Shown here piece by piece: positions 1 to 25,783 of a DNA stretch of 64,000 nt. The DNA is from an uncultured Myxococcales bacterium (lineage in GTDB: Bacteria; Myxococcota_A; Polyangia; Fen-1088): assembly GCA_964491125.1 (NCBI GenBank), contig CAZBFJ010000001.1:168-64167 (forward strand), written 5' to 3'. Position numbers and translations under genes: made by a program. A model generated the notes under the pieces. It was not told the DNA's origin. It did no database searches and worked only from the letters and a program-made list of their open reading frames with translations. Every line of letters begins with the position of its first letter. The stretch's first letter is position 1.

Positions 1-1770
1 CAGCCGGCTGACCGCACCGTCGGTGGTGTACTGCCCGATCGCCACGACCGCGCGCCCGCGCACTTCGGGGCGTCGATCGCCGAGAAGCTGGGCGAGGAAC
101 GGCTCCGCCGCGGGCGCGGTGATTGCCCCGAGCGCATCGATGATGCCGAGGCGAACCGGGCGCTCGTGCCCACGGTAACAGGCCATGAGACGACGGGCCG
201 TCGCGCCGTCGCCGATGCGTCCAAGGGCCCGCAACGACTGCGCGCGCGTTTCCGGATCGCGTTCGAACTGCTGCTCGAGCCGGCGCAGCGCGCGCCGCGA
301 ACGACGGTGCCCGAGCGCCTGCACGACCTCGGCGCGGACCGCCACCGAGGGATCGTCGAGCAGCGGTTCCAGCACCTCGAGAGAATCGAGCGTCTCGTTG
401 GCCGCCAACACCCCGACGGCCGCGCGCCGCACCTCCTCGCGGGGGTCCGCCAGTGCCCGCCCCACGAACTCTCGTTGCTCGGGGCAAGGAGAGATGCGCA
501 TGATCTCGAGCACGAGGGGCGCCTGCGCCTCGGCCAACTCGCGCGCCGCCAAGAGGGCGCGCGTGACCAACCCCGCGTCCATCGCGCCGAGCGCACGCAC
601 CGCGGCCTTGCGCACGGGCTCGGCCGGGTCCGCCAGGCAGCGCAACATCGACGGGACCGCTCCCTCCGCCGCCAGCCCCGCGAGGGCCCGCAACGCCGCC
701 ACCCGTACCCGCGTCTCGCTCGCACCGAGGAGCGCCACGCACGGCTCCGTCGCTTCGGCGATCCCCAGGGCCGCCACCGCCGTCGCCGAAAACACGCGAA
801 CGTCCGGGTCCGCGTGCGCCAGTCCCGCCAGCACGGCCGGGTGCGCCGCCGCCCCCGCGAATACCACCGCGTCGAGCAACGGCTCACCGATGGCGGTGTC
901 CCACGCCGCCTCGACCAGGACGGCGAAGAGGCTGGGGAGCGCCAGCGCCCGGATCACGGCGACAGCCGCCTCCTTGAGCGCGTGCTCGGCCGGCGTCACC
1001 TCGACCTCGCGTCGCGCGAGCAGCGTGACCAACCGATCGTGCACGGCCTTGGCCTCGGCCGAGGCCAGGCGCTGCCACGCCCGACTGCCATCCAGCCCCG
1101 TCGCGTCCACCATACGGCGAATGGCGTTGCCCAGCCCGAGCAGGCAACCGTTGAAGTCGCCCGACGCGACCCGGATCGAGAGGAGCTCGGCCAGGACGGT
1201 CGCGGCCGGAACCGTTGCGATCTTGCCAAGCGCCTCGATGGCCAGCTCAGAGATCGCAGAGTCCGCCGCCACGCGCATGAGCGCATGCACGCTCCCCGGA
1301 TGCGCGATGTCTCCGAGCGCGTGGGCCGCGGCGAAACGCAGCCAGGGATCGGCCTCGAGGACCGCCTCGATGGGCGAGGCCGCGGCCTGGGCGCGCAGCT
1401 TGCCGAGCGCGTCGATGGCCGCCTGCGCCACGTTCAGGTCGGGGTGCTGCAGCAGGCGAATGAGGTGCGGTACCGCCGCCGGGTCGCGGGCCTCGCCGAG
1501 CGCGGTCGCGGCGCACATGACCACGTCGGCCTCGTGCGAACGCAAGGCTCGGATGAGCGCCGAGATGCCGCTCGCCCCGCCGTGCGCGAGCGCATCCAGG
1601 ACGGCGTGACGCTGCGCAAGCTCCTCGCTCGCCGGCAATTCCCGCACCTCTTCCCGCGTAACCGCGGGCGTGGCCGGCCCGGGCGGGGGTTGCGGAGCCG
1701 CGGGATCGGGTCCGCTCAATGCCGCGAGCAAGGTTTCGTCGAGCGACGCCACGGGGCCCTGATGTTCCAT
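1..1770 (-). CDS. PBS-lyase HEAT-like repeat protein (Cpc7-like); partial, the 3' end runs past the window start
   Basis: I reverse-complemented positions 1-1770 by hand. The translation is MEHQGPVASLDETLLAALSG... with many repeats of the form AAxALGxxxDPxAVPxLxxLLxDxDxxVRxxAvxALG (e.g. LLDDPSVAVRAEVVQALGH). It starts at the ATG at 1770-1768, 1 nt after the MCP stop. The frame is still open at position 1. It is absent from the ORF track because it runs off the edge. Confidence 0.75.
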   Translation of the reverse strand, partial: MEHQGPVASLDETLLAALSGPDPAAPQPPPGPATPAVTREEVRELPASEELAQRHAVLDALAHGGASGISALIRALRSHEADVVMCAATALGEARDPAAVPHLIRLLQHPDLNVAQAAIDALGKLRAQAAASPIEAVLEADPWLRFAAAHALGDIAHPGSVHALMRVAADSAISELAIEALGKIATVPAATVLAELLSIRVASGDFNGCLLGLGNAIRRMVDATGLDGSRAWQRLASAEAKAVHDRLVTLLARREVEVTPAEHALKEAAVAVIRALALPSLFAVLVEAAWDTAIGEPLLDAVVFAGAAAHPAVLAGLAHADPDVRVFSATAVAALGIAEATEPCVALLGASETRVRVAALRALAGLAAEGAVPSMLRCLADPAEPVRKAAVRALGAMDAGLVTRALLAARELAEAQAPLVLEIMRISPCPEQREFVGRALADPREEVRRAAVGVLAANETLDSLEVLEPLLDDPSVAVRAEVVQALGHRRSRRALRRLEQQFERDPETRAQSLRALGRIGDGATARRLMACYRGHERPVRLGIIDALGAITAPAAEPFLAQLLGDRRPEVRGRAVVAIGQYTTDGAVSRL

Positions 1771-1771
1771 G

Positions 1772-4129
1772 TTAGACGGTGAAGGTCTCCATCCGCTGCC
1801 GCAAGGACTCGGCCTCGGCGGCCAGGTCCTTGGCAGCAAGATTGAGCTCCTCTACCACCTGGAGATTCTGCCTGGCAACCTCGGCGATCGACTCGGTCGA
1901 CCTGACCACCGTCTCCCCGCCACGCTTCTGCTCGAGCGTGGCCTCGAGCATCGAGCTCGTGAGCGCGCTCATCCGCCGAGACGCGGTCACGATCTCCGCC
2001 GCGCTGCCGGCGTTCTCGCGGGCAGCCACGGCGATCTGCTGGGCGATCCCCGACATGTTCTCGGCGACCCTCAGGGTCTGTCGCGCGGCCTCGCTCTGGC
2101 TCTCGGTGGCGAGGGCGCTGGCCGCGATGATGGTGGACGTCTTGTCGATGGAGGCCATCATCCCCACGAGAACGTCGTCGGTCAAGGTCACGGCCGCGCC
2201 CACGTCCTTCTGCACCCCCTCGATGATGCTGCCGATGTCCCGCGTGGCCTGTGCACTGCGCTCCGCCAAGCGCTTGACCTCGTCGGCGACCACGCCAAAG
2301 CCGCGGCCCGCCTCTCCGGCGCGCGCGGCCTCGATGGCCGCGTTCAAGGCCAGCAGGTTCGTCTGATCGGCGATCTCTTCGATCAGCCGCAGGATCTTGC
2401 TAATCTCCCGCGCCCGCTCGCCAATCGCGCCGATCGAGTGCTGCAGGGTCTCGCTGCCCGATTTGACCGAGCCCAGGGTCGCCTTCGACATCTCGTTGGC
2501 GGTCCGGGCCTGCGCCGTGACCTGCGCGATGTTGGCCGTGAGGCCTCCGAGGTGCATGGTGGCCTCCTGGGAGGACACGAGCAAGGATTGTCCATGCAGC
2601 GCGGTCCGCTCCAAGGTTTCGTACATCCGCTGGAAAGCAGAGGTGGTCTCCTCCACGCTGGCCGACAGGGAGGTGGCGGTCGCGGAGAGCTGTTGGATCT
2701 TCGCGGCGATGTCCCCCATGCTGGTCGAGGTCGTGCTGGTGGCGGCCGACTGGGTCTCCGCGCCCTTGCCGAGCTGCTCTCCCGAGCGTGAGATCCGTTC
2801 GGAAGCCACCGCCACCGTTCGCGAGGCGGCGAGAATGGAACGGATGGTCCCGCGCAGGTTGGCCGCCATCTTGCGCATGGAATGAAGGAGCTGCCCAACC
2901 TCGTCCGTCGAGCGCGTCTCGGCGATCTCGACCGCGAAGTTCTGCGCGGCCAGGCTGTTGGCCGATTCGACCGCCAGGGTGATGGGCACGGTGATACTGC
3001 GGACGATGACCGACACCAGACCGGCCGCCAGGAGCACGGCGATCGCGACCAGCGCCAGCGACCAACGCTCCTGATCCTGGCGCGCCACCACCTTGTCGTT
3101 CAGCTCGCTCCCACGGGTGGCCAGCGCAGCGTCGAAGGTCGCGAACAGCCCGTCGAGAGCGCCGCCCACCTCGGCGCGCAAGGCCGCCACGGTCTCCGCG
3201 CTGCCCGCGTCTTTCGTCGAGCTGGCGAGCTGCTTGGCCACCCCCATCGCCCGTCGCGCCGAGCGGTGCCATTCGTCGAAGGGCGCCTTCACCGGGACCA
3301 CCAGCCGGGGCGCAGGCAGCGGGACGCCCCCTTGCGAGACCTCGATGAGGTCGCGCTCGACGTCGGCCAGGTTCATCGCCAGGGCCTCGCTGGCGCTCAG
3401 CAGCTCGGCGCGGGTCGCGAGCGGGACCTCGTCTCGCAGCAGCCACTTGCCGCCGAGCTCGGCGATGTGCTCGAGGCTCCAGGCCGCTTGCGGCAGTCGG
3501 CGCAGGATCGCGTCGTCGAGATGCGCCGCCCCCGCGGTCAGCACCTCGGTTTCGCTGGCCAACATCGCGAGTTGCAGAAACCAGACCGCCACCGAGTCGC
3601 GCAGCGGCTGGCTCAGATCCGCCGAGGTATCCATCACTGCCTGACCGCTCATGGCGCGCAGCCGGCTGAGCGTCTCGGGCATCCGCAGGCGCGCCAGCTC
3701 GGGGTTGGCCCCACACCCCGCGCTGCCCAGGCTGTCGAGCTCGGCCACCGAAGTCGCCAGGACGCGGCGGGCGTTGCCGAACATCTCGTCCACCTGGGCG
3801 AGCCCGGTGGCGCCGTTCAGCAGGATCTGCTGGCGCAAGATTCGCCGGAGCGGCTGCGCGTAGCTCCCCATGCACTGCATGCGCTTCATGCGGTCCACCT
3901 GGTCCTTACTCTTGCCGACGAAGTCGCGCAGGAAGAACACGGTCGGCAACAAGAGCACGACCATGATGAGCACCAGCTTCCACCAGAGCGTCAGGTGCCG
4001 GAGGAGGGGCGCGCCTTCGACACGGCCCAACCAGAAGCGGCGTCGGTGTTCGCCTGCAGCGGGTTCTGGCGCGCTCTTCTCGCCGCGCACGGCGGCCTCC
4101 AAGCTTGGGGTCCTCACTCGTCGGCTCAT
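1772..4129 (-). CDS. Methyl-accepting chemotaxis protein (TM1 - roughly 300-aa periplasmic sensor - TM2 - HAMP - MA signalling domain)
   Basis: 785-aa ORF. It has the conserved MCP signalling hairpin ([35 protein letters not shown]) and two TM helices ([20 protein letters not shown] and [19 protein letters not shown]). The ATG at 4129 overlaps the cheW stop (ATGA). Confidence 0.9.
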
Positions 4130-4680
4130 GTCGCTTCCCCTTTCGTGGGTGGCGAGGCTGCCTCGTCGCGTAGAAAGCCTTCCGCGTCGAGCAGGGTGAT
4201 CCGCCGGTCCTCGACGCTGCCCACCCCGGTGATACCGGGAACGGCCACGCCCGGGGGCGGCGCCGCGATGTCACCCGAGGCGAGCTTGACCACGCGGGCC
4301 ACGCGGTCCACCAACAGCGCGAGCTGGCGACCGGCAACCTCGACCACCAGCAGTCGCGACTTCGGCGTCGGCAAGCCTCCCGCGAGCCCGGCCCGGGAAC
4401 GAGCGTCCACCACCGGCACGATGTGGCCACGCAGGCTCACGACGCCGCGAACGTGGGCGGGTGCCTCGGGGAGGCGGGTGAGGGTCGACACCCGCACGAT
4501 CTCGCGACACTGCAGGATGGGGACGCCGTATTCGTCGTCGCGCAGAAAGAAGGTCACGTACGCCGTGAGAGCCGTCGCGGACCGAGCCGCCGGCTCCGAT
4601 CCGGGCGCACGCAGGCTGTCCACGAACCCGAGCAACGAGCCATCCGCCACCCCGCCAACCTTCACGGGCTCAGAGGACAT
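4126..4680 (-). CDS. cheW: Chemotaxis coupling protein CheW
   Basis: The C-terminal 180 aa of ORF 4126..5025 is a CheW domain ([23 protein letters not shown]...[22 protein letters not shown]). The N-terminal 115 codons of the track ORF are Arg/Trp-rich junk that overlaps cheA. I chose the ATG at 4680 ([10 protein letters not shown]), which overlaps the cheA stop by 11 nt. Confidence 0.8.
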
Positions 4681-6382
4681 CGCCAAAGGCCTCCTCGCCG
4701 GCCGCGCTCGGCGTGCTTGGCTGCCGGGCCTTCCCGATCCGGCGCACCACCTCCATGCAATCGAGGATCGGCACCACCCGCCCCTGGGCCAGCACCGTCG
4801 CACCGGTGACCAGGTGGCAGGCTGCGAGCGTCCCGTCAAGCGGCTTGACCACGATCTCCTGGACGCCCGCCAGCCAATCGACCAGCAGGACACCGCGGTT
4901 GTTGCCTGCCTGCAGGACCACACCGTAGGGCCGGGTCCACGCCTGGGAGAGCCCCTGGCATCCGAGCAACCGCCCGCCATCCGCCGCGCGCACGAAATCG
5001 CCCCGCCAGGAAACCAGCAGGACACGGTTGATCTCCTGCAAATCGCGCTCGCGGCTCTCGAGGGTGTCGAGCACGAAACCGGCGGGGAGCGCGAAGCTCT
5101 CGCTGTCCACGCCGAAGATGAGCGCCCGCTGCAGCGACACGGTCACCGGCAGGTCCAGCACGAACTCCGTTCCCTTTCCCGGCGTGGAGCGGACGTCGAT
5201 GCCGCCGCCCAACCCCTGCACCGCCGCCGCCACCACGTCGAGCCCCACCCCACGTCCCGCGAGACTGGTGACCACCTTGGCGGTGGAGAAGCCCGCCTGG
5301 AAGATGAGGCGCTGCAGCTCCTGCGGACCCATTCCATCGACGTCCACGCCGTGCGCCTTGGCCTTGGCCGCGATCGCGGCGAGGTCGAGCCCACGACCGT
5401 CGTCGCCAATCCGCACGTCGACCCGGCCCTCCCGGAGCCGCGCGGAGAGCACGATCCTCGCCGCCAGCGGCTTGCCGGCGCGCACACGCTCCTCGGCGGG
5501 CTCGATCCCGTGCGCGACTGCGTTCCGCACGAGGTGGACGAGCGGCTCGAACAGGCGGCCGATGATCGCGCGATCCACGGCGGTCTCGCCGCCCTCGATC
5601 ACGAGCTCGATGGCCTGCCCGCGGTCACGGGCCAGGTCACGCAGGTAGCGCTGGAAGCGCCGGAACAGCGTCCCGATGGGCGCCAACCGGACCCGCAGGA
5701 GCTCGTCGCGCATCCGGCGTGCCAAGCGCCCGAGCTCGGCCACGAGCTGATCCATGAGGGCGACATCGCCGGCCTCGAACTGGTTGCGCGCGAATCGCCC
5801 ATGGATGCGCGCCAGCTCGGCCTGGCCGACGATCGTCTCGCCGCTGAGCTCGAGCAGCTCGTCGAGCGCCCCGTCCGCGATACGCGTGCTTCCCGGTCGA
5901 TCGCCCTCCGTGGCCGCTGCCGCCGGCTCCACCATCGGCACGACGGGGCGCGGGGCGCCTCCCTCGGCGGGCGCGCGCGCCCCCCGCGCCTGGGTCTGGG
6001 CCGCGGCGCGCGCCACGAACGCCTCCACCTCGTCCGCCGGGAGCTCCCCCGACGGAGCCGAGGCAACGAGCCGATCGAGCAGATCGCAACCTTCGATGAG
6101 CGCCTGCGCCAGGGCCGTCGGCTCGCCGGGCGGTGGGTCGGAAACTCGCGGGCACAGGTCCTCGAGCGCGTGCGCCAGCCGCTCGATAGGCCCAAATCCC
6201 ATCATGGCGCCGTTGCCCTTGATGGTGTGCAGGTTGCTGCGAATACCGCGCAGGACCGCGCTCCCGTCCCCGCCCGCCCGCCAGACCTCCTCGAGCTTGA
6301 GCAGGAGGCCCCCCACCTCTTGCGAGAACGGCCGCGTCTCGTCGACGAAGTCGTTGACCAAGGATGAGAAGATCCCTTCCAC
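4670..6382 (-). CDS. cheA: Chemotaxis histidine kinase CheA (HPt - dimerisation - HATPase_c - CheW-like)
   Basis: The HPt phospho-His motif is HTIKGNGAMMGF. The ATP-binding G-boxes are DDGRGLD and GRGVGLDVV. The C-terminal CheW-like domain is present. The track ORF continues upstream to 7132 as low-complexity Arg/Gly sequence overlapping the next gene. I chose the in-frame GTG at 6382 (VEGIFSSLVNDF), which lies after a GAGGGCGGC RBS and 11 nt past the upstream gene's stop. Confidence 0.85.
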   Translation of the reverse strand: MEGIFSSLVNDFVDETRPFSQEVGGLLLKLEEVWRAGGDGSAVLRGIRSNLHTIKGNGAMMGFGPIERLAHALEDLCPRVSDPPPGEPTALAQALIEGCDLLDRLVASAPSGELPADEVEAFVARAAAQTQARGARAPAEGGAPRPVVPMVEPAAAATEGDRPGSTRIADGALDELLELSGETIVGQAELARIHGRFARNQFEAGDVALMDQLVAELGRLARRMRDELLRVRLAPIGTLFRRFQRYLRDLARDRGQAIELVIEGGETAVDRAIIGRLFEPLVHLVRNAVAHGIEPAEERVRAGKPLAARIVLSARLREGRVDVRIGDDGRGLDLAAIAAKAKAHGVDVDGMGPQELQRLIFQAGFSTAKVVTSLAGRGVGLDVVAAAVQGLGGGIDVRSTPGKGTEFVLDLPVTVSLQRALIFGVDSESFALPAGFVLDTLESRERDLQEINRVLLVSWRGDFVRAADGGRLLGCQGLSQAWTRPYGVVLQAGNNRGVLLVDWLAGVQEIVVKPLDGTLAACHLVTGATVLAQGRVVPILDCMEVVRRIGKARQPSTPSAAGEEAFGDVL

Positions 6383-6393
6383 GCCGCCCTCGC

Positions 6394-8127
6394 CTACCCG
6401 GTCTTGCGTTCTCCGAAGATGGCCTCTGGCACGTCGGGGACGGGCCTCGAGCGGCGGAGGAACTCGTTCTCCAGCGCCAGGCCGAGCTGAAAAGCGGCCA
6501 GCTCGAAGATCTCGATGTCGCCGATCGGCCGATCGCGCGAACCGTTGTCCATGTAGATGGCCGCGATCATGCGAGCGCTCCCCGGCACGGGCAGGACCGC
6601 GATCTCCCCGGTACGAGGTCGATCGACCACCTGCGCGAAGCCCGCCGGGAGCTTCGCCTCGTCGTAGTAGACCCGCCGGGGACGACTGTCCGATAGGCAG
6701 TTCTTGAAGATCCCCGCGTCGCCGATGGGGACGATCAGCCCCTTGGTCACCCTCGCCAAGGGCGCGCCTTCGAGCGTGTTGCCGAACGCACCGAGCGCGA
6801 CGAGGCGGTCGAGATGCGGCACGAAGAGCACTCCGCGCTCGAGAGACTCGGCCACGGCCGCCATTAGGTTCGACGACACCGAGGTCCCGAGCAGCCCGGA
6901 GCGCAGGTCGGCGATGATCCGTCGCAAGCGGGCGAAGCTGGTGCGAATTCCCTCGGCGATCGCGACCTCGTTCGCCATGTACTTGCGCTGGCGCGCCGCC
7001 GACTGCATGCAGGCGACGATGGTGGCCGGAACCGCCGAGGTCACCGACAGGACGCCCACCTGGTACATCTCTCGCAACGGCGCGCGTCCCTCGAAGAGCG
7101 CGATGACCGCCGCCCGCGGACGGGACCGGCAAAGCGCCGCCAGCGTGGCCAAGGCGGTCGGCTGGTAGCGCAGGTCGACCACCACGATGGGGGGCGCCTC
7201 GCCGAGGAGGGAGGCGCCGGCATCGCGGAGCGCGACCGCCGAAACGTGGTCACCCCCGAGGGCCAAGAGCGCGTTGAGCTGCGCGCACAGCTCGGCGTCC
7301 GGCGAGACCAATTGGAAGCGAAGGCGGTCGACGGCCGGCATCGGCGTCGGCTCCCTAGGCGAAGAGTCGCGCGGGAGCCCGGGTCTCGCGCCGAGGCCGT
7401 CGCTCGCCTCCGTTTCGGCGACCAGCCCGGCCGGCCGCCTGGCGCCGCCCTTGGTCCCACTCTCCGCCGGCACCGCCTCGAGCTCGGCGCTCTCGCTCAG
7501 CGGCTGCCGGACCGTGACCTGCTCCGGGGGCTGGTCCCCGGTCGTCGCGTCCACGTCGTCCGGAGCCGGGATCACGTCATCGAAGCCCGTCAGCGGCTCT
7601 TCCGCGCCCGCCGACCCGGGCTCGAGCTCGCTCTCCTCGAGCCGCCGCAGGGCCTCCATCAGCACGGCCTGCGTGTCGAGGTCCAGCTTGGGGGCGCCGG
7701 TGAAGCGCGTGACCTCGACCACCGGGGTAAGGTCGTCGACAGCGAACTCGAAAGAGCCCGACTTCCAGGTGCAGATCTCGGCCACCACCCGCTCGATCTC
7801 CTTCGCCATCACGTCGCGGATGACCTCGGGGGTGGTGGCGTTCATCTTGACGAGGTAGTGGCCTATCGGGCGCCGCGGTCGGTCGCCGTTCTGCGCCGCC
7901 AACGCCGCGGCCAAGAGGGTTTGGTCGAGAACCCCGGCCGCCACCAGCAGCTCGCCTACCCGCAAGGTGCGCGCGTTCCACGCGCTCACGATGCGGCCGC
8001 GCTCGAAGCCGATGATCGCTTCCTCTTCCCCGTTGTTGATCGTCAAGCTCCCCGAGTGCCCGCCCACGCGAATGAGCTGCATCACATCCGCCACGGCCAC
8101 GTCCTCGATCATGCCCTGGAAGCTCAT
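6394..8127 (-). CDS. DUF4388 - receiver-like - GAF multidomain signalling protein
   Basis: The N-terminus (IEDVAVADVMQLIRVGGHSGSLTINNGEEEAIIGFERGRIVSA) matches the DUF4388 pattern. The middle segment (PIVVVDLRYQPTALATLAALC...) looks like a divergent receiver fold. The C-terminal roughly 150 aa (VLFVPHLDRLVALGAFGN...IAAIYMDNGSRDRPIGDIEIFELAAFQLGLALEN) is GAF-like. It sits 31 nt downstream of the GAF gene and 11 nt upstream of cheA. Confidence 0.75.
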   Translation of the reverse strand: MSFQGMIEDVAVADVMQLIRVGGHSGSLTINNGEEEAIIGFERGRIVSAWNARTLRVGELLVAAGVLDQTLLAAALAAQNGDRPRRPIGHYLVKMNATTPEVIRDVMAKEIERVVAEICTWKSGSFEFAVDDLTPVVEVTRFTGAPKLDLDTQAVLMEALRRLEESELEPGSAGAEEPLTGFDDVIPAPDDVDATTGDQPPEQVTVRQPLSESAELEAVPAESGTKGGARRPAGLVAETEASDGLGARPGLPRDSSPREPTPMPAVDRLRFQLVSPDAELCAQLNALLALGGDHVSAVALRDAGASLLGEAPPIVVVDLRYQPTALATLAALCRSRPRAAVIALFEGRAPLREMYQVGVLSVTSAVPATIVACMQSAARQRKYMANEVAIAEGIRTSFARLRRIIADLRSGLLGTSVSSNLMAAVAESLERGVLFVPHLDRLVALGAFGNTLEGAPLARVTKGLIVPIGDAGIFKNCLSDSRPRRVYYDEAKLPAGFAQVVDRPRTGEIAVLPVPGSARMIAAIYMDNGSRDRPIGDIEIFELAAFQLGLALENEFLRRSRPVPDVPEAIFGERKTG

Positions 8128-8158
8128 CGCGTCCCTCGCATGGGAGCTGCCCTGGTCA

Positions 8159-8920
8159 TCACCCCTTCTTGACGAGCTTGATCAGCCCCTCCAAGGTTCG
8201 CAGCTTGCGAGCGGCGCGCGCGTAGACGCGCGAGGCAAAGAGCGCCGAGGCCGCGTGCGCGCCCAGAAGATCGAGCAGCTCGCGGTCTTCTTCTTCGAGG
8301 GCGGCCTTGTGCTCGAACAGCTTGGTGACGACGAGCGCCCCGACCGTGACGTCCTGCACGCGCAGGGGCACGACCACCAGCACCGGCGAGCTTTCGGTCG
8401 GGCCGAAGCGCAACAGGCCGTCGAGCAACGACGCGTCGATCAAGGGATCGCCCCCGCTGTACGTCGGCTGGCTCGCCCAGGGAGCCGCGATCTCTCCCTC
8501 GCGCAGGCGGATCTCGAGCGCGCTGCCATCTTCGGCGTGCAGGAGCAGCAGGAAGTGCTCGGCCCCGAGCAGGTTGACCGCGATCTCGGCGATCGTGGAC
8601 TGCACGTCGGCGGGATCCAGCGTGGCGTGTAGCTGGTACGTCGCCACGTAGAGGGTCATCAGGCGCCCGACCTGGTGCTCGACCTCGACCAGGCGAGAGG
8701 CCAGCTCCTCCCGATCGTTCTCGGCCTGGGCCAAGCGAGCCTCGCGCTCCGGAATCTCCGTCGAAGCAGCCCGCTGCTGCACCACGGACTGACTCGCTTC
8801 CTCGATGGCCCTCTGCGCGTCGCGAATGAGCTGCCGGGCGCGCATCAGCGTGGCGAGCGGGTCCGTGCTGTCTAGCCCCGTGCTGGATGAACCGGCGGCC
8901 ATGGCTTCACCGTCCTTCAT
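8159..8920 (-). CDS. Coiled-coil + GAF domain protein
   Basis: 253 aa. The N-terminus is a coiled coil (RARQLIRDAQRAIEEASQSVVQQRAAS...). The C-terminus is a GAF-like fold (NLLGAEHFLLLLHAEDGSALEIRL...VLVVVPLRVQDVTVGALVVTKLFEHK). The ATG at 8920 overlaps the cheY-like stop (ATGA). Confidence 0.7.
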   Translation of the reverse strand: MKDGEAMAAGSSSTGLDSTDPLATLMRARQLIRDAQRAIEEASQSVVQQRAASTEIPEREARLAQAENDREELASRLVEVEHQVGRLMTLYVATYQLHATLDPADVQSTIAEIAVNLLGAEHFLLLLHAEDGSALEIRLREGEIAAPWASQPTYSGGDPLIDASLLDGLLRFGPTESSPVLVVVPLRVQDVTVGALVVTKLFEHKAALEEEDRELLDLLGAHAASALFASRVYARAARKLRTLEGLIKLVKKG

Positions 8921-9324
8921 GGAAGCGTGGGAGCGGAGGTGGGGGCCGGGCTGGTGGTGAGACGCCCGATGATCTTGAGCAGGTCCTCGCGCTGGAACGG
9001 CTTCTTGAGGTAAGCGACGGCTCCCGCCTGGAGCCCGCGGGCCACGTCCTCTTCCTTTCCCTCGGTCGAGACGATGACCACCGGGATCTTCGCGAAGTCG
9101 TCGCTCTGCTTGACCTCCTTCAAGAACTCGAGCCCCGTCATGTGCGGCATGTTGATGTCGAGGATGATGACATCGACGTCCTCGTGCTCGGCCAGCCGGG
9201 CCAGACCTTCACGGCCGTCGTGGGCCGCGATCAGCATGCAGGGCCGCAGCATCACCTCGTACATCTTGTGGATGAGGCGCGAGTCCTCGACCACGAGCAC
9301 CTTGCGAGTCTTGGCGACGTTCAA
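8917..9324 (-). CDS. cheY: CheY-like single-domain response regulator
   Basis: The C-terminus of track ORF 8917..10074. I chose the TTG start at 9324 (MNVAKTRKVLVVEDS...) after a GGGAGG RBS with 6-nt spacing. The receiver has the acidic pair EDS, the phospho-Asp in ILDINMP, VST and LKKP. The upstream part of the track ORF is Pro/Ser/Arg junk. Confidence 0.8.
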   Translation of the reverse strand: MNVAKTRKVLVVEDSRLIHKMYEVMLRPCMLIAAHDGREGLARLAEHEDVDVIILDINMPHMTGLEFLKEVKQSDDFAKIPVVIVSTEGKEEDVARGLQAGAVAYLKKPFQREDLLKIIGRLTTSPAPTSAPTLP

Positions 9325-9712
9325 CGGGAACCTCCCTTGGCGGGGACCAGACGAAGCTGCCGATCGTGCACGGTAGGGCGGCACGACGGGGCGTGCAGTC
9401 ACCTTGTCCCATCTAGAGTTTTCGTCGGAATGTGGGTCTTGCTTGAGGCTGACGAGCTCGCCTCCACGCGACGAGCCAGCCCCGAGCGGAGGCGTAGTCT
9501 GCCATGGTGTCGGCGGCGAGGGCCAGGGGGGGAAAGGTCCTACCCGAGCGCCGGGGAGGCGGTTGTGCGGTGACGCACGGAGGATGCCTCGGCTTTCCCC
9601 CGGCCCGGCTCGAGAGCCTCCGAGAAACGCGGGCGCCGCGAAGAGGACATGAGCGCCGGCTCGCGGTGCCCAGACGTTCCCTCTCTCGCTCAGGCCGCCA
9701 CGGACTGCCGGC

Positions 9713-13707: not shown

Positions 13708-16170
13708 TCAGCCCCCGGCCCGGGGCGCCGCCAGGGTCTGGCGGAGGTGCTCGAGGCTCGGTGGCTTGGCCATGTGACGATCGAAGCCGGCCTCGGCCGC
13801 CCGCTGCAGGTCCTCCGGCAGCGCGTAGCCGGTCAGGGCCACGAGCAGGGTTCCCGCGAGCGATTGCTCGGCGCGCAGGGCCCGAGCCACGTCGTAGCCG
13901 TCCATCCCCGGCAGCCCGATGTCGCAGAGCACGACGTCGGGGTGGTGCTCGAGGGCGTGCCGCAGCCCGGCCGGGCCATTGTGCGCGACCCATACCTCGT
14001 GCCCTTCGAGCTCGAGCAGCTCCCGTAGGCTCTCGGCGGCGTCCGCGTGATCTTCGATGATGAGCACGCGTCCCTGGGATACGGGAGAGCTCGCCAAGAG
14101 GGCCTCGTCTCCCTCGGCCGCCGTCATGTCGAGCGGCAGCCGCATCGCGAACTCGGAGCCCTGGCCTGGGCCGCGGCTCTGCGCCTCGACGGTGCCGCCG
14201 TGCAGCTCGACCAGCTCCTTGACGAGGGCCAGGCCGAGCCCCAGCCCGCCCCGGCTGCGATCGAGCGTCGTCTCCGCCTGCATGAAGGGCTGGAACAGAC
14301 GCTCCACGAGCTCGGGCCTCATGCCCATGCCCGTGTCGGCGACGCGCACGACCGCTTGCCGGGTTGCCACGTCGGCGGCGACGGTCGCGGTGACCCGTCC
14401 GCCCCGCGGGGTGAACTTCACCGCGTTGTGCAGAAGGTTCCCCACCGCCTGCGCCATCCGGCTGCGGTCGGCGTTCACCCGGACCGGGACACCCGGCAGC
14501 GCGAGCTCGAGGGCCACGCCCGCCTTGTCGAACTCCAGCCGGTAGTCCTCGCCCGTGCTCCGCACCAGCTCGCCGAGGTCCAGGCGTTGCCTTTGCAGGT
14601 GGATCTTGTTGCGGGTGATACGGGTGACGTCGAGCAGATCGTCGACCAGGCGGGACAGCTGGTCGACCTGGCGATCGATGATGGCCTTCACCCGCCCCGC
14701 CTGCTCGCTCCCCGGGACCGCTTGGTCGAGCACCGCGAGGCAGTTCTTGATCGGGGCGAGCGGGTTCCGCAGCTCGTGCGAGAGCGTGGCCATGAACTCG
14801 TTCTTGCGCTGATCCGCCTCGATGAGCTGCGCGTTGGTGATGCTGAGCGCCCGGCTGGTTTCCATGCGCTGGACGGCGGCGGCGACCTGGTCCGTAACCG
14901 CGCGCATCAGCTCGACCTCGTCCTCGGCGAAGCGCGGTCGGTGCCGCGTGCCAAACGAGAGAGTCCCAAGCACGCGATCGCCCTGTCCGAGCAACGGATG
15001 GCAGCAGTAAGCCTGCAGGCCGTAGCCACGGATGAGCTCGGCGCGCGGGTCATCGGAGTGCTGCAGGTCCTCGGCGAGGATGCGGGTGGCATCCCGTGCC
15101 ACGCAACCGCAGATGGCCACGCCGAAGTCCAGCCGTTCGATCTTGGCGGCCGCGTCGGCCGGGATCCCCGCGAAGGCATTGAGGCGCAGCCGACCTTCGG
15201 CCGGCTCCGCCATGAAGTTGAAGAACGCCTGGCAGTCGAGGTGAGCCATGACCTCGTGGCAGAGCTCGTCGATCACCCGCTGGGGCTCCTCGGCGCGCAG
15301 CAAACGGCCGGCGGTGCGCGCCAGCAAGCGAAAGCGGGCCTCGCTGGCACGCAAGGCGTCCTCGGCGCGCTTGCGCGGGCTGATCTCGGTCGAGACGCCG
15401 AGCACGTGCTCGACCGTCCCGTCGGGGGCGCGCTCGGCCGCCAGCTTGAGCAGGAAGTGCCGTGGTTCTCCCGGCGGATCGAAGGCGAACTCGACCTCCT
15501 CGGAGATCCCGGTGGCGAAGACGCGCGCGATGGCGCGTTCCCAGCGGTCGCACAGGGCCGCCGGCATGCCCATCTCGCGGTTGGTCCTGCCCAGGAATGC
15601 GGAGCTGGCGATGCCGGTCACTTCTTCGGCGCGCCGGCTGAGGTACACCACCCGCTGCTGGCGATCGAAGCGCATCAGGATCGAGGGGATGTTCTCCGCC
15701 AACCCACGGAAGCGGCGCTCGCTGTCTTCCAGGGCCCGGTGCGCGGCCTCGAGCTCCGCGACCCGTCGGGCGAGCTCCGCCTGCTGGAAGTTGAGCTGGA
15801 GCAGGATGCGCGCCTTGCTGGTGAGGATCTTGGGCTCGATGGGCTTGACCAGGAAGTCCACCGCGCCGGCGTCGTACCCGCGGAAGATGCGGACGCGGTC
15901 GTGCATCCCCGCCGTGACGAAGATGATGGGAACGCGTCGGGTGCGCTCGGCGCCGCGCATGAGCTCGGCGAGCTGGAAACCGTCCATCTCCGGCATCTGG
16001 ATGTCCAGGATGGCAAGGTTCACGTCGTAGGCGAGAAGCAGCTCGAGTGCCTCGGCCCCCGAGCTGGCTTCGAGCAGCTCGGCCTCGAGCGAGCGCAACT
16101 GGGCCCGCAGCGCCAACAGATTCTCGGCGCGATCGTCGACGAGGAGGATGGTCGGTCGGGTCATGGTCAT
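13708..16170 (-). CDS. Hybrid sensor histidine kinase (REC - PAS - GAF - HisKA - HATPase_c - REC)
   Basis: 820 aa. N-terminal receiver (ILLVDDRAENL...LDIQMPEMDG). H-box FMATLSHELRNPL. N-, G1-, G2-boxes. C-terminal receiver (VLIIEDHADAAE...VLCDIGLPGMDG). The ATG at 16170 overlaps the cheR stop. Confidence 0.9.
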   Translation of the reverse strand: MTMTRPTILLVDDRAENLLALRAQLRSLEAELLEASSGAEALELLLAYDVNLAILDIQMPEMDGFQLAELMRGAERTRRVPIIFVTAGMHDRVRIFRGYDAGAVDFLVKPIEPKILTSKARILLQLNFQQAELARRVAELEAAHRALEDSERRFRGLAENIPSILMRFDRQQRVVYLSRRAEEVTGIASSAFLGRTNREMGMPAALCDRWERAIARVFATGISEEVEFAFDPPGEPRHFLLKLAAERAPDGTVEHVLGVSTEISPRKRAEDALRASEARFRLLARTAGRLLRAEEPQRVIDELCHEVMAHLDCQAFFNFMAEPAEGRLRLNAFAGIPADAAAKIERLDFGVAICGCVARDATRILAEDLQHSDDPRAELIRGYGLQAYCCHPLLGQGDRVLGTLSFGTRHRPRFAEDEVELMRAVTDQVAAAVQRMETSRALSITNAQLIEADQRKNEFMATLSHELRNPLAPIKNCLAVLDQAVPGSEQAGRVKAIIDRQVDQLSRLVDDLLDVTRITRNKIHLQRQRLDLGELVRSTGEDYRLEFDKAGVALELALPGVPVRVNADRSRMAQAVGNLLHNAVKFTPRGGRVTATVAADVATRQAVVRVADTGMGMRPELVERLFQPFMQAETTLDRSRGGLGLGLALVKELVELHGGTVEAQSRGPGQGSEFAMRLPLDMTAAEGDEALLASSPVSQGRVLIIEDHADAAESLRELLELEGHEVWVAHNGPAGLRHALEHHPDVVLCDIGLPGMDGYDVARALRAEQSLAGTLLVALTGYALPEDLQRAAEAGFDRHMAKPPSLEHLRQTLAAPRAGG

Positions 16171-16985
16171 TGCCTTCGGTAGATTCGCTGGTCCCTCACG
16201 TGTTCGCTGAAAGCCTCGGTATGCGTGGAGAACCGCAGGGTCTCCTTGGCGCCGAGCCCGAGAAACCCCTGGCGCACCAGGGCCTCGGCGAAGAGGCCGA
16301 GCGTGCGGTCCTGCAGGGTCCGATCGAAGTAGATGAGGACGTTCCGGCAGCTCACCAGCTCGACCTCGGCGAAGACCACGTCCGTCGCCAAGCTGTGCTC
16401 GGCAAACAAGATCTTGCGGCGTAGCGAGGAGTCGACGATGGCCGCCCCGTAGCCCACGGCGTAGTGGTCGGCCAGCGAGCCGCGACCGCCCGCCTCGAGA
16501 TACGCGCGGCTGAAGCCCGCCATCCGCTCGAGCGGGTAGATGCCCTTCTCCGCCACCGCCAGGGCCCCCGGAGCGATGTCGGTGGCGTAGATGAGGGCAT
16601 TGTCGAGGAGTCCTTCTTCCCGCAACAAGATGGCGAGCGAGTACGCCTCCTCCCCGGTGCTACATCCTGGAACCCACACCTTGAGAGAGGGACGGGTACG
16701 TAGCCACGCGACCACTTGTTGGCGGATCGCGCGGAAGTACCCAGGATCGCGGAACATCTCACTGACCTGCACGGTCAACATCGAGAGCAGCTGGCCCCAC
16801 GCGTCGGCGTCGTGGAGCACGAGCTCTTGCAGTCCCGAGACCGACCGCACCCGAAAGCGTCGCACGGCGTCTTCGATCCTGCGTCTGATCGAGGATGGGG
16901 CGTAGTGGCGGAAGTCGTGGTGGTACTTGGCGTAGATCGCCTCGAAGAGGAGGGGTATCTCGATGTCCGGCTCGCCGAGCGCCAT
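16167..16985 (-). CDS. cheR: Chemotaxis-type protein-glutamate O-methyltransferase CheR
   Basis: 272 aa. SAM-binding motif VWVPGCSTGEEAYSLAILL plus a conserved CheR N-terminal helical subdomain. There is no TPR or other extension. Confidence 0.88.
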   Translation of the reverse strand: MALGEPDIEIPLLFEAIYAKYHHDFRHYAPSSIRRRIEDAVRRFRVRSVSGLQELVLHDADAWGQLLSMLTVQVSEMFRDPGYFRAIRQQVVAWLRTRPSLKVWVPGCSTGEEAYSLAILLREEGLLDNALIYATDIAPGALAVAEKGIYPLERMAGFSRAYLEAGGRGSLADHYAVGYGAAIVDSSLRRKILFAEHSLATDVVFAEVELVSCRNVLIYFDRTLQDRTLGLFAEALVRQGFLGLGAKETLRFSTHTEAFSEHVRDQRIYRRQ

Positions 16986-16995
16986 CGACCGCCCC

Positions 16996-19900
16996 CTACT
17001 TCGGCAACCACACCTTCATCAACGACACCAGTCGGTCGACATCGAGCGGCTTCGGGACGTAGTCGCTCATCCCCGCGTCGATGCAGGCACGCTGATCATC
17101 CGCCATCGCCTTGGCCGTGAGCCCGATGATCGGCAAATTGGCCCAGCCTCGCCGCCGGCGAATCTCCCGCGTCGCGGTCAAGCCGTCCATGACGGGCATC
17201 ATGACGTCCATCAGCACGAGGTCGATGCCCTGCGACGGGTCCTGTTCGGCGCGCGCCAGCGCATCGACGGCTTCCTGGCCGTTGCGCGCGACCCGCAGCT
17301 TAGCGCCGCGCGGCTCGAGGACGCTCGACAGCGCGAAGATGTTTCGCGCATCGTCCTCGACCACCAGGATGTTCCGCCCTTCGAACCCGGCATCGCGCTG
17401 TCGCGCGACGCGCAGCATCCGCTGCTGTTCCGCCGGCAGGGAGGTCTCGATCTGGTGCAGGAACAACGACACCTCGTCGAGCAGCCGCTCGGGAGTGCGC
17501 GCACCCTTGATGACCACCGAGCTGGCATGGCGCCGCAGTCGCTGCTCTTCTTCGCGCGTGAGCGGCCCCGAGATGTCCACGACGACCGGCGGGTAAGAGC
17601 ACGCTTCGTCCGCCGCCATCCGATCGAGCACATCGTAGACGGACATGTCGGGCAGGGAGAGGTCGAGCACCACGCAATCGAACGCCGTGCTCCTGAGCTG
17701 GGCGAGCGCGTCGCCACCCCTCCCGACCACCACGATCTCGACGCCGTCGTGCTCGAGCAGCGCGCGCACCGATGCGCGCCTGGCCTCCGCCCCCTCCGCG
17801 ACGAGGATCCGGCGCATCGGCTCCACCAGCTTCCGCTCGAGCCGTTCGATCGCCCCGACGAGCTGGTCCCGTTCGGCGGGCTTGAGCACGTACCCGATCG
17901 CGCCGAGCTCCAGCGCCTGTTGGGCATAGTCGTCGACGGAGAGCACGTGGACCGGGATGTGGCGGGTGGCCGGGCTCGCCTTCAGCCGCTCGAGCAAGCC
18001 GAGGCCCGACTGATCGGGCAAGTGCACGTCGAGCAGCACGGCGCTCGGCGGGCAGCGCTCCGCCAGCTCCATCCCCTCCCGACCGGTGGCTGCCACCAGG
18101 CAGCGAAAGCGCCGTTCCCTCACGAGATCCCGCAGGATCCCTGCGAAGGCTGGATCGTCTTCGATCACCAGGATGACCCGTTCGCCGGGGGCCACCTTGC
18201 CGCGGTCGTCTTCCACCCGTGGGCCGGACTGCCGAGACGAATCGTCACGCCCCATGCTCGTCGCGACCGGGTTCGCAAGGGTGGCACCGGGACGCTGCCC
18301 CGGCGGGGGCGTGCACGCGAACACCTTGTCGATGTCGCTCGGCAGGGTCAACGTGAAGGTGCTGCCCTTGCCGACCTCGCTCACGACAGCGAGCGTGCCG
18401 CCGAGACGGTAGGCGAGCTCGCGCGAAATCGTGAGACCGAGGCCGCTGCCGCCGTACTTGCGATCCGTGCTGCCGTCGACTTGACGAAAGGCCTCGAAGA
18501 TCAGCTCGTGCTGGTCCGCGGGGATCCCGAGGCCCGTGTCGCGAACCGAGAAGGCCACGCGACTGTCCGGTGCCGTCGCGATGCGCAGCGCGACCTCGCC
18601 GGTCTCCGTGAACTTGACGGCGTTGGCGAGGAGGTTGCGCAGGATCTGGAGCAGGCGCAACGGGTCCGACTTGATCGAGGGGGGCACGTCCGGCGCCGTC
18701 TCGATGGCGAGAGCGAGACGCTTCTGCCGGGCCATGGGCTCGAAGGTCTTCTTGAGACCGCCCACGATCGTCGTCAACGTCACGGCTTCGGGGCGAATGT
18801 CGACGTGGCCGGCCTCGATGCGCGACAGATCCAGGATGTCGCTGAGCAGGGCGAGCAGATCGGTGCCCGACGCGTGGATGGCCGATGCGTACTTGACCTG
18901 CTCGGAGGTAAGGTTGCCGTCCGGGTTGTCGGCGAGCAGCTTGGCCAGGATGAGCGCGCTGTTGAGCGGCGTACGCAGCTCGTGACTCATGTTGGCCAGG
19001 AACTCCGACTTGTAGCGATTGGCCCGCGCCAACGCCTCCGCCTTCTCGAGTTGCTCGAGCTGCGCCCGTGACAGGTCGTCCCGCTGCTGCTCGAGCACGT
19101 GCGCCTGCTCCTCGAGCTGCGCATTGGTCTGCTCGAGCTCCGCCTGTTGCGCCTCGAGGCGGCTCTGCGATTCGGCGAGCGTCTGGCTCTGCTCCTCCAT
19201 CTCCTCGTTGATGGCTCGCAGCTCCTCTTGCTGGACCTGCAGCTCCTCGGCCTGCTGCTGCGACTCGACCAGCAGGGCGGCCTGGCGTGCGCGATACTCC
19301 GCCGAGCGGAAAGCGATGGCGATCCGCGCGGCGGTCGCCTCGAGAAGATCGACGTCCGGCGCGCCGATCGGGCGCAAGAACCCGATCTCGACCACGGCCT
19401 TGACCTCGCCGTCGATCTGCGCCGGCAAAACAAGCAGATGGGCGGCCCGTGTCCGGCCGAGCGTCGAGCTCACGGGCAGGTAGTCCGCCGGCAGGTTCTC
19501 GAGGCGCAGGATGCGCCGCTCCTTGAGCGCCTGACCGACCAAGGTGTCCCCCGCGCGCAGCACCTCGGGCACGGCGGCGGAGGCGGGGACCGCATAGCTG
19601 GCGCGCCGGCGCAGCTCGCCCCCTGGCCCGGCCACGTACAAGACCCCGATGGGGCTCTCGAGGTAGCCGCACAGGAAGCGGAGGACGTTGTCCGCCAGCC
19701 GCTCGACGCCCTGCTCGCCCTGCATCCGATTGGCGAGCTCGTTGTGGCCCGAGCGAATCCATTCTTGCTCGCGCAGCAGGAGGCTCGTCAGGATGAAGCG
19801 GCGGACCATGACGGCCACGGTCCACAAGGTCACCATCCCGAAGACGCGGTTGACCTCGGAGATGACCACGATGCGCGCCTCCGACACGGGCGAGAGAACG

Positions 19901-20112
19901 AAGCCAATCCCGATGAGCACGCTCGAGACCGCGGCGCTGAGCAGCGGCATCCGGGGCCGCGATTGCTCGAGCATCAACCCCAGCGGGACGAGGTAGAAGA
20001 TCCAGGCGGCGATGCCGATCGGGGTCAGCGCGTCGGCCGCGAAGACCGCCGCGGTGCTGATCCCGGCGGCAAGCAGGAGGGCCGGCCGCTTCTTCCCCAT
20101 CAACCGTTCCAT
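16996..20112 (-). CDS. Membrane hybrid histidine kinase (polytopic N-terminus - GAF - Q/E-rich coiled coil - HisKA - HATPase_c - 3x REC)
   Basis: 1038 aa. N-terminal TM helices. GAF-like segment. An roughly 90-aa Gln/Glu-rich coiled coil. H-box FLANMSHELRTPLNS. ATPase G-boxes. Three receivers (ILVIEDDPAF..., RILVAEGAEAR..., NILVVEDDARN...DLVLMDVMMPVMDG). Confidence 0.88.
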   Translation of the reverse strand: MERLMGKKRPALLLAAGISTAAVFAADALTPIGIAAWIFYLVPLGLMLEQSRPRMPLLSAAVSSVLIGIGFVLSPVSEARIVVISEVNRVFGMVTLWTVAVMVRRFILTSLLLREQEWIRSGHNELANRMQGEQGVERLADNVLRFLCGYLESPIGVLYVAGPGGELRRRASYAVPASAAVPEVLRAGDTLVGQALKERRILRLENLPADYLPVSSTLGRTRAAHLLVLPAQIDGEVKAVVEIGFLRPIGAPDVDLLEATAARIAIAFRSAEYRARQAALLVESQQQAEELQVQQEELRAINEEMEEQSQTLAESQSRLEAQQAELEQTNAQLEEQAHVLEQQRDDLSRAQLEQLEKAEALARANRYKSEFLANMSHELRTPLNSALILAKLLADNPDGNLTSEQVKYASAIHASGTDLLALLSDILDLSRIEAGHVDIRPEAVTLTTIVGGLKKTFEPMARQKRLALAIETAPDVPPSIKSDPLRLLQILRNLLANAVKFTETGEVALRIATAPDSRVAFSVRDTGLGIPADQHELIFEAFRQVDGSTDRKYGGSGLGLTISRELAYRLGGTLAVVSEVGKGSTFTLTLPSDIDKVFACTPPPGQRPGATLANPVATSMGRDDSSRQSGPRVEDDRGKVAPGERVILVIEDDPAFAGILRDLVRERRFRCLVAATGREGMELAERCPPSAVLLDVHLPDQSGLGLLERLKASPATRHIPVHVLSVDDYAQQALELGAIGYVLKPAERDQLVGAIERLERKLVEPMRRILVAEGAEARRASVRALLEHDGVEIVVVGRGGDALAQLRSTAFDCVVLDLSLPDMSVYDVLDRMAADEACSYPPVVVDISGPLTREEEQRLRRHASSVVIKGARTPERLLDEVSLFLHQIETSLPAEQQRMLRVARQRDAGFEGRNILVVEDDARNIFALSSVLEPRGAKLRVARNGQEAVDALARAEQDPSQGIDLVLMDVMMPVMDGLTATREIRRRRGWANLPIIGLTAKAMADDQRACIDAGMSDYVPKPLDVDRLVSLMKVWLPK
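19018..19290 (-). repeat. Q/E-rich heptad coiled-coil segment inside the hybrid HK; resembles MCP methylation helices
   Basis: Residues about 275-365: LLVESQQQAEELQVQQEELRAINEEMEEQSQTLAESQSRLEAQQAELEQTNAQLEEQAHVLEQQRDDL. It is low-complexity Q/E with EE/EQ/QE pairs in heptad register. Coordinates are approximate. Confidence 0.4.
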
Positions 20113-25590: not shown

Positions 25591-25783
25591 TGCGACCTCG
25601 AGTGCCAGACGGGGGTTTCGTAGCGATCCGCACCGTTTGGGTCCCATTGTATCAGCTTTCGCCCAACTTCATTGAGGCGGCGCCACCTCGACCTCGCCCG
25701 AGCGTGGGCCAGGACACGCGGCGATGCGCGACGTGGGATCGCTGCCCACATCGCCCGCGATGGTCTACTTGTGCTACCTCGGG

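Follow-up and report, generated by a model that had tools for sequence, protein, structure and literature searches.

A non-flagellar chemosensory operon of an uncultured Polyangia bacterium joins a Che7-type core to a PATAN module and lacks methylation-based adaptation genes

Introduction

The Che7 system of Myxococcus xanthus, reportedly treated by Darnell et al. in 2014 (J Bacteriol 196:3160), and the cyanobacterial Tax/Pix/Pil systems are the described pathways that most closely resemble the locus reported here. We analysed a 64-kb stretch of contig CAZBFJ010000001.1 (hereafter the window) from an uncultured member of the Polyangia (Myxococcota), a soil or peat myxobacterium, in which positions 1-9324 carry on the minus strand a genuine seven-gene signalling operon. 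It joins a core of Che7 type to a PATAN module, apparently without adaptation by methylation, and is not a categorically new system.

The Che7 gene list of M. xanthus comprises CheY7, CheA7, CheW7, Mcp7, Des7, CheR7, CheB7 and Cpc7, and Mcp7 has neither a transmembrane (TM) segment nor a HAMP domain (Moine et al. 2014, PMC3945109). A pairing of CheY7 with Cpc7 is cited in two further papers (PMC11514114, PMC9040617), and cross-talk of CheA7 to an orphan response regulator (RR) has been described (PMC9040617). In Synechocystis, the PATAN (= DUF4388) output domain binds the N-terminus of PilB1 as well as PilC's N-terminal domain, and Tax1 uses the PATAN-receiver (REC) regulator PixG together with the single-domain CheY PixH, which opposes PixG; PixE is non-phosphorylatable (bioRxiv 10.1101/2021.06.11.447907; PMC11181946).

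Results

Gene content and layout of the operon

The operon comprises the following genes, in order of transcription.

8917-9324, minus strand: RR, a single-domain CheY-like response regulator, 135 amino acids (aa), with a TTG start behind a GGGAGG ribosome-binding site
8159-8920, minus strand: ccGAF, coiled coil plus GAF, 253 aa, or 247 aa with a start at M7
6394-8127, minus strand: PATAN (DUF4388, PF14332 PatA_N) protein, 577 aa
4670-6382, minus strand: CheA, 570 aa
4126-4680, minus strand: CheW, 184 aa
1772-4129, minus strand: methyl-accepting chemotaxis protein (MCP), 785 aa
1-1770, minus strand: HEAT protein, of which the first 590 aa lie inside the window and the full length is 644 aa

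By the coordinates of the open reading frames (ORFs), the junctions from RR to HEAT measure, in order, -4 (ATGA), +31, +11, -11, -4 (ATGA) and +1 nt. An earlier reading made from the letters without database searches (the sequence-only reading) had described seven coupled minus-strand genes, and coordinates, strand and spacing all agree with it. Public gene calls on L001 (contig Ga0268387_1024406, 41.7 kb), a locus that is 99% identical to the window with proteins 96-100% identical, use later starts for ccGAF (M7, 247 aa) and MCP (772 aa); because both ATGA overlaps depend on start choice, they are likely and not certain. L001 was reached via the PATAN homolog, and an exact-sequence lookup with the window MCP returned no match.

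A Pfam search recovered every domain that had been named for the seven products. For the protein that had been read as DUF4388/receiver-like/GAF, Pfam supports DUF4388 (2e-24), and the receiver-like and GAF parts gain their support from AlphaFold and Foldseek; that DUF4388 is PATAN, a known chemosensory output domain, had gone unrecognised. The MCP contains HAMP and MCPsignal (Pfam) and, by hydropathy, TM segments at about aa 48-68 and 356-376. The domain of ~287 aa between them agrees with the two-TM receptor and periplasmic sensor of ~300 aa that had been proposed, and this sensor has no Pfam match and no PDB sequence match.

The RR matches Pfam Response_reg at 2.3e-26 and, when aligned to E. 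coli CheY, has the canonical phospho-acceptor residues E13, D14, D56, S86/T87, Y105 (Tyr106 equivalent) and K108. It is the most conserved gene of the operon (83-91% identical among close-clade orthologs) and encodes its sole canonical receiver, as CheA has none of its own. CheA consists of P1 (Hpt, HTIKG), P3, P4 and P5 and is without P2 (Pfam Hpt, H-kinase_dim, HATPase_c, CheW); its matches to two NCBIfam CheA models (1e-81 and 8e-73) are both under the equivalog cutoffs. CheW matches Pfam CheW at 2.6e-31, and its gene overlaps the CheA stop by 11 nt.

Comparison with Che7 and cyanobacterial systems

The window operon and M. xanthus Che7 have in common a single-domain CheY, a receiver-less CheA, a CheW, an MCP and a PBS-lyase-type HEAT protein within one cluster, and both belong to the non-motility ('alternative cellular function') class. 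The window operon is without the CheB, CheR and desaturase of Che7, and it adds ccGAF and the PATAN-pseudo-receiver-GAF protein between RR and cheA. These differences had been listed by the sequence-only reading and stand; a further one, unlisted there, concerns the receptor: the window MCP spans the membrane and carries a HAMP domain, and Mcp7 has neither feature. By repeat type and gene context, the window HEAT protein is a candidate counterpart of Cpc7. A more distant locus, L090, has nearly the same complement as Che7 without the desaturase, and in L090 the HEAT gene precedes CheR-CheB whereas in Che7 it stands at the end (an order inferred from locus tags).

With the cyanobacterial Tax/Pix/Pil systems (PixG/PixH/PixI/PixJ/PixL, PixE) the operon shares a single-domain CheY and a PATAN/receiver-like protein within a che cluster, as well as a PATAN alpha-clip related to the PilB N-terminus, and PixE offers a precedent for a non-phosphorylatable receiver. 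In contrast to those systems, the receiver-like domain of the window protein is without four of five catalytic residues and has a GAF-like domain appended, separate ccGAF and HEAT proteins are added, there are no nearby pilus genes, and the host is a myxobacterium.

Flagellar (F-class) features were also considered: CheB/CheR, CheZ/CheC/CheD and motor genes are all missing from the operon, and none that is flagellar was seen in the window or in the L001 flank. A full-text literature search returned no paper combining DUF4388, CheA and GAF. We agree with the earlier suggestion that the operon may be an undescribed Che7 variant.

Conservation of gene order

Gene order was surveyed by tblastn across ~85 loci (L numbers), which lie on contigs from metagenomes or metagenome-assembled genomes (MAGs) and represent non-independent lineages; a contig scan with a single protein query covers four MAG loci. 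Full-length homologs of the PATAN protein, 57-79% identical, occur on many such contigs. The named ones are labelled Polyangia, Myxococcales or, in one MAG, uncultured delta proteobacterium; among them is one MAG from a fen.

The order RR-ccGAF-PATAN-CheA-CheW-MCP is found in all close-clade loci of sufficient length and is kept in more than 40 contigs, and the RR-ccGAF-PATAN triad is never split where che genes are present. In L044 and L066 the triad stands alone, with CheA-CheW-MCP-HEAT absent as a block and the flanks unchanged: an AAA+ gene lies upstream and DoxX downstream, directly in L044 and past ~7.5 kb of inserted genes in L066. Only the PATAN gene is left in L037-L039, L041, L056 and L057.

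Of 20 informative close-clade loci, 18 carry a HEAT ortholog, which in 13 of them starts 0-6 nt past the point where the MCP alignment stops. L004 and L063 cleanly lack it, having the same DoxX flank and no remnant, and a post-MCP HEAT gene occurs in one of seven informative sister-clade clusters. Because the triad persists without CheA-CheW-MCP-HEAT and HEAT is missing from two of the 20 close-clade loci, HEAT is, as judged from gene order, not part of the conserved core of the operon, and it is the ccGAF and PATAN proteins that invariably accompany the RR.

In the sister clade we also observed, on the same strand, an orphan T2SSF (PilC/GspF-like) gene of 359 aa with two T2SSF domains and no adjacent ATPase gene. 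Its positions are as follows.

L034:7641-8717 and L049:12736-13812: T2SSF gene directly past the che cluster
L037:12030-13106 and L041:4668-5744, also L038, L039, L056, L057 and L082: T2SSF gene directly past a lone PATAN gene

By analogy, this adjacency is suggestive of the cyanobacterial interaction between PATAN and PilC.

The PATAN and ccGAF proteins

In the AlphaFold model, which is confident for the three folded parts, the PATAN protein consists of a PATAN domain with alpha-clip (aa 1-168), a disordered linker (170-264), a receiver fold (265-385) and a GAF-like domain (425-555). The top Foldseek matches of the model are the REC-GAF dual-sensor kinase 6ob8, GAF domains including that of cAMP-bound Lcd1, and receivers including the N-terminal domain of CpaE. 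When isolated, the receiver-like and C-terminal GAF-like domains have no significant Pfam match. Two features within the protein bear on its function.

7798-7965, minus strand: alpha-clip insertion, aa 55-110 within the PATAN domain
6973-7335, minus strand: pseudo-receiver, aa 265-385, a (beta-alpha)5 fold by DSSP on the AlphaFold model

The alpha-clip consists of two MshEN/GSPII-like helical motifs, RVGELLVAAGVLDQTLLAAALAAQ and PIGHYLVKMNATTPEVIRDVMAKE, separated by a 7-aa spacer. Among 43 homologs its invariant residues are R56, G58, E59, L61, L72, L76 and Q79, and the 24-residue pattern RLGxxLVxxGxLxxxxLxxxLxxQ is matched in full by motif 1 and in part by motif 2. A sequence search of the PDB gave the T. 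thermophilus PilF GSPII domain as the best match (E=0.001), with MshE 5htl at E=1.4. Like the MshEN/GSPII domains of MshE and PilF, the alpha-clip is helical with two motifs and invariant R, G, L, L, L and Q; it differs from them in motif 2, which is without the leading Arg and ends in Glu instead of Gln, and in its sub-cutoff score.

By alignment and model, the receiver fold keeps an invariant D318 (D57 equivalent), but S275-P276 stand where the acidic pair (D12/D13) would be, with L344/F345 in place of T87 and T363 in place of K109. Its sole Pfam signal is a weak match to a VpsR domain (E=0.022). By the usual criteria applied to such alignments, the domain classes as a pseudo-receiver. The family with this PATAN-pseudo-receiver-GAF architecture amounts to 143 clusters (50% identity) at E<=1e-30, and in many of these the match spans the full length at 30-43% identity.

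The ccGAF protein matches Pfam GAF_2 (1.6e-7), GAF_3 and GAF at aa 101-227. Across loci its gene always adjoins those for RR and the PATAN protein, at 64-88% identity, and more than 1400 homologs were found at E<=1e-5.

The HEAT protein

That the last ORF encodes PBS-lyase-type HEAT repeats, as had been proposed, was borne out by profile search, with HEAT_2 at 4e-63 (9 stretches) and HEAT_PBS at 3.5e-13. The AlphaFold model (pLDDT 88.8) is an all-helical solenoid of ~38 helices behind a disordered, Pro-rich segment (aa 1-48), and Foldseek against the PDB matched it to generic HEAT solenoids and alphaRep proteins only. With the CpcE/CpcF/NblB lyases the protein shares HEAT_PBS-type repeats and partial NCBIfam matches to NblB and CpcE; it differs from them in its 644 aa and ~38 helices, its non-phototroph host and its scores (NblB 66.8 bits versus a cutoff of 300, CpcE 48.4 versus 330, CpcF 23.4 versus 220). 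Because these scores are far under the equivalog cutoffs, the protein is best regarded as a putative scaffold and not as a phycobilin lyase.

HEAT orthologs are 56-86% identical and all ~645 aa long. There is also a second tier (36-43% identity, ~620-660 aa), and in each of the six contexts examined it neighbours a single-domain RR, che genes or both.

L087/L088: RR (131 aa)-HEAT pair with a 4-nt overlap
L089: RR-HEAT-GAF-PATAN-HEAT, divergent from a CheA-MCP-CheW-CheR-CheB cluster
L090: RR-CheA-CheW-MCP-HEAT-CheR-CheB
Two more RR-HEAT pairs: CheA-MCP-CheW-CheR-CheB clusters lie a few kb away
L097: MCP-HEAT-CheR-CheB

Between these RRs and that of the window, identity is 40-43%. Gene neighbourhood offers good evidence for a partnership of the HEAT family with a CheY-like RR, in parallel to the one reported for CheY7 and Cpc7. 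In L089 (9609-16677) the divergent che genes are broken into short ORFs, which could result from long-read frameshifts or from real pseudogenisation.

Loss of methylation-based adaptation

For positions 1-9324, the earlier statement that the cluster lacks any CheB/CheR holds: tblastn with E. coli CheB and CheR found neither there. Across the whole 64 kb, no methylesterase domain of CheB could be detected, and a CheR-family gene does occur elsewhere in the window (see below). In the sister clade (PATAN protein 57-60% identical), the adaptation genes sit between cheW and the MCP gene and show a graded decay.

HEAT'-CheR-CheB: L033, L035, L072
CheR-CheB: L043
CheB only: L045, L047, L049
CheB remnants: L034, L046
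None: L042, L055

HEAT' denotes a paralogous HEAT gene of 658 aa between cheW and cheR (L033:7469-9445, L035:13980-15956) whose product is ~31% identical to the window HEAT protein. Two HEAT genes within one che cluster were seen in L035 and also in L089.

To compare methylation sites, we aligned 30 orthologous MCPs, six from clusters with intact or remnant cheB and 24 from clusters without CheB.

2636-2665, minus strand: retained methylation site, MCP aa 489-498, with a consensus fit in 28 of the 30 MCPs
2720-2749, minus strand: decayed methylation site, MCP aa 461-470, AATSTTSTS in the window and SAATEETSSS in CheB-containing relatives

At the retained site, four of the six MCPs from cheB-intact or cheB-remnant clusters have EQ, and the CheB-less MCPs have EE except in L014 (EA). 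The EQ of cheB-bearing clusters fits a need for deamidation by CheB. At the other site, the EE pair is intact in all six of the former and lost in all 24 of the latter. Because the sister clade keeps both enzymes and the decay of the methylation site tracks the absence of CheB, the comparison identifies the loss of CheB/CheR in the window lineage as a derived evolutionary loss accompanied by receptor change, and not an effect of the assembly edge.

Window edges and wider neighbourhood

The window begins inside the HEAT gene, and a downstream partner such as a desaturase had accordingly been left as a question. Extension via L001 shows that the operon ends at HEAT (644 aa), after which come a convergent DoxX gene, PfkB and a spermine-synthase-like gene; the L001 flank past HEAT contains no desaturase, CheB, CheR or motility gene. 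Upstream of the RR gene are a Suv3-like helicase and ilvC. Housekeeping genes, among them PFK, RNase Y, RecN, Ffh, Lgt, DnaK and AcrB, occupy the rest of the window, and flagellar, pilus, type II secretion system (T2SS), CheZ and CheC/D genes were not found in the 64 kb. The classification as an alternative-function (non-flagellar) chemosensory operon, made earlier, is thus upheld by a lack of motility genes throughout the 64 kb and the L001 flank.

The presumed promoter and 5' leader of the operon lie in the intergenic region upstream of RR.

9325-9712, minus strand: RR upstream intergenic region, 388 nt

An alignment of 28 orthologous upstream regions shows conserved leader blocks CTCAAGTC, GACGAAA and GGGTGA, and a small UCCCC/GGGAGG hairpin covers the RR ribosome-binding site (weak by RNAalifold, -2.8 kcal/mol). 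A block farther upstream, ATTGTG...CGTGGCAAAATGG, is kept in most loci and diverged in the window. Scans of the region for sigma-70 promoters and terminators performed no better than on shuffled sequence. A cyclic di-GMP (c-di-GMP) riboswitch in the leader was considered and dropped, as Rfam gave no match in the window and chance-level matches only in L016.

The CheR-family gene of the window (16167-16985, 272 aa) is flanked by two hybrid histidine kinases (HKs) and is an HK-associated CheR. The HK-CheR-HK trio (13708-20112, minus strand), with kinases of the types REC-PAS-GAF-HisKA-HATPase-REC and GAF-HisKA-HATPase with three REC stretches, is confined to the window/L001 lineage and lies beside the che operon in no other. 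We set aside as less probable a role for this CheR in serving the operon MCP, since other lineages do not keep the gene at this place.

A PAS-GGDEF diguanylate cyclase gene (57445-58464, plus strand) and a gene for a GAF-HD_5 (HD-GYP-like) protein (60249-61916, minus strand) lie about 50 kb away from the che operon; they possibly encode c-di-GMP turnover enzymes in the vicinity of the MshEN-like motif. Just upstream of ffh is the second HEAT-like gene of the window, a small one (33870-34958, plus strand; 362 aa) with a borderline HEAT_2 score of 27.5 bits versus a cutoff of 27.7. Unrelated to the operon is a 1105-aa protein (22330-25647, minus strand) with several DUF4215 repeats (Pfam 3.6e-61), a Cys-rich repeat typical of myxobacterial secreted proteins.

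Discussion

The reading that we consider to have a slightly better than even chance is that of a non-flagellar pathway in which a Che7-type core is combined with an RR-associated ccGAF/PATAN pair, with PATAN as terminal effector. The first module would be the transmembrane MCP, CheW, P2-less CheA, canonical RR and HEAT solenoid of ~650 aa, and the second the RR-associated ccGAF together with the PATAN(alpha-clip)-pseudo-receiver-GAF protein; both modules also occur separately elsewhere. A periplasmic ligand would act through the MCP and CheW on CheA, which would phosphorylate the RR. The phosphorylated RR would then act solely via protein-protein contacts, on the HEAT scaffold, as CheY7 on Cpc7, and on the ccGAF/PATAN pair as a second target, plausibly by docking on the pseudo-receiver. 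PATAN would be the terminal effector and, as in cyanobacteria, would make contact with a platform or ATPase of type IV pilus or type II secretion-like kind, and the GAF domains and MshEN-like alpha-clip could be entry points for small molecules (cyclic nucleotides, c-di-GMP). Methylation-based adaptation would have no part in this pathway.

Several observations weigh against this combined model of core and PATAN pair. As far as genomes can tell, the links from the RR to HEAT, ccGAF and PATAN are purely ones of gene neighbourhood, and some lineages do without HEAT. Since the triad also occurs where CheA is missing, other kinases may serve the RR. The contigs are non-independent lineages, so the counts are descriptive only and overstate the support. 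Adjacency to T2SSF is confined to the sister clade and may be passive synteny, with no pilus or T2SS gene in the window or L001. The alpha-clip scores 27.9 bits against NCBIfam NF053729 (MshE-related c-di-GMP motif), for which the cutoff is 38. A candidate paralogy of the two GAF domains, of ccGAF and of the PATAN protein, was also rejected, as BLASTP gave E=57 and no mutual similarity.

A less likely account, although one with real points in its favour, is a Che7-like pathway in which HEAT is the sole output: phosphorylated CheY would bind HEAT and control development or stress, and the GAF proteins would be input modulators tuning CheA or the RR. The recurrence of RR-HEAT pairing is in line with this, given the overlapping genes of L087/L088, the Che7-like order of L090 and the pairs near che clusters, as are the tight coupling of HEAT to the MCP gene in 18 of 20 close-clade loci and the CheY7-Cpc7 precedent (cited in PMC11514114 and PMC9040617). 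GAF domains are, moreover, typical small-molecule sensors, and the Foldseek matches include cAMP-bound Lcd1. However, HEAT is absent from L004, L063 and six of seven sister-clade clusters, whereas RR-ccGAF-PATAN remains unsplit where che genes are present and the triad persists without CheA or HEAT; PATAN, in addition, is documented as an output and not an input domain (bioRxiv 10.1101/2021.06.11.447907; PMC11181946). Of the earlier proposal that HEAT is the output of the pathway, the part that survives is the membership of HEAT in the operon (18 of 20 close-clade loci, six of six distant contexts), and the part that does not is HEAT as the sole output.

More speculative, and in our view rather unlikely, is a 'split' PatA-type output. 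Phosphorylated CheY would dock in trans on the degenerate PATAN receiver, the resulting receiver/pseudo-receiver heterodimer would unmask PATAN, and ccGAF, the C-terminal GAF domain and the alpha-clip would gate the response via second messengers, with HEAT as a CheY sink or scaffold that replaces the lost CheB/CheR in termination or adaptation.

We consider it improbable that the operon consists of two independent neighbours, with RR-ccGAF-PATAN fed by another kinase and CheA-CheW-MCP-HEAT served by an RR encoded elsewhere. The triad-only loci L044 and L066 with their same flanks, the che-HEAT clusters without PATAN/GAF genes (L090, L097) and the cross-talk of M. xanthus CheA7 to an orphan RR (PMC9040617) would fit such an arrangement, but the PATAN stop and the cheA start lie just 11 nt apart, more than 40 contigs keep the order, the operon's sole canonical receiver is the 135-aa RR, its CheA being receiver-less, and L089 strings RR, HEAT, GAF and PATAN genes together. 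A conventional motility chemotaxis cluster with CheB/CheR/flagellar genes just outside the window has almost no likelihood, since, even though sister-clade relatives carry CheB and CheR inside the cluster, L001 past the edge shows HEAT and then convergent DoxX, PfkB and a spermine-synthase-like gene, helicase and ilvC lie upstream, the 64 kb contain no CheB methylesterase or flagellar gene, and one methylation site is decayed.

The output is known for only a few non-motility chemosensory pathways. With ~80 related contigs, this locus brings into one operon two types of output that are understood in part, the HEAT protein of the CheY-binding type and the PATAN effector. It also gives a hypothesis that can be tested for proteins of the PATAN-pseudo-receiver-GAF type, which form a large and uncharacterised family in Myxococcota. 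If true, the split PatA-type output would be an undescribed chemosensory output logic applicable to the 143-cluster PATAN family. As the lineage is apparently uncultured, heterologous biochemistry is the realistic route to such questions. The natural series of adaptation-enzyme loss with decay of a receptor site is, in turn, useful for asking how chemosensory arrays work without methylation.

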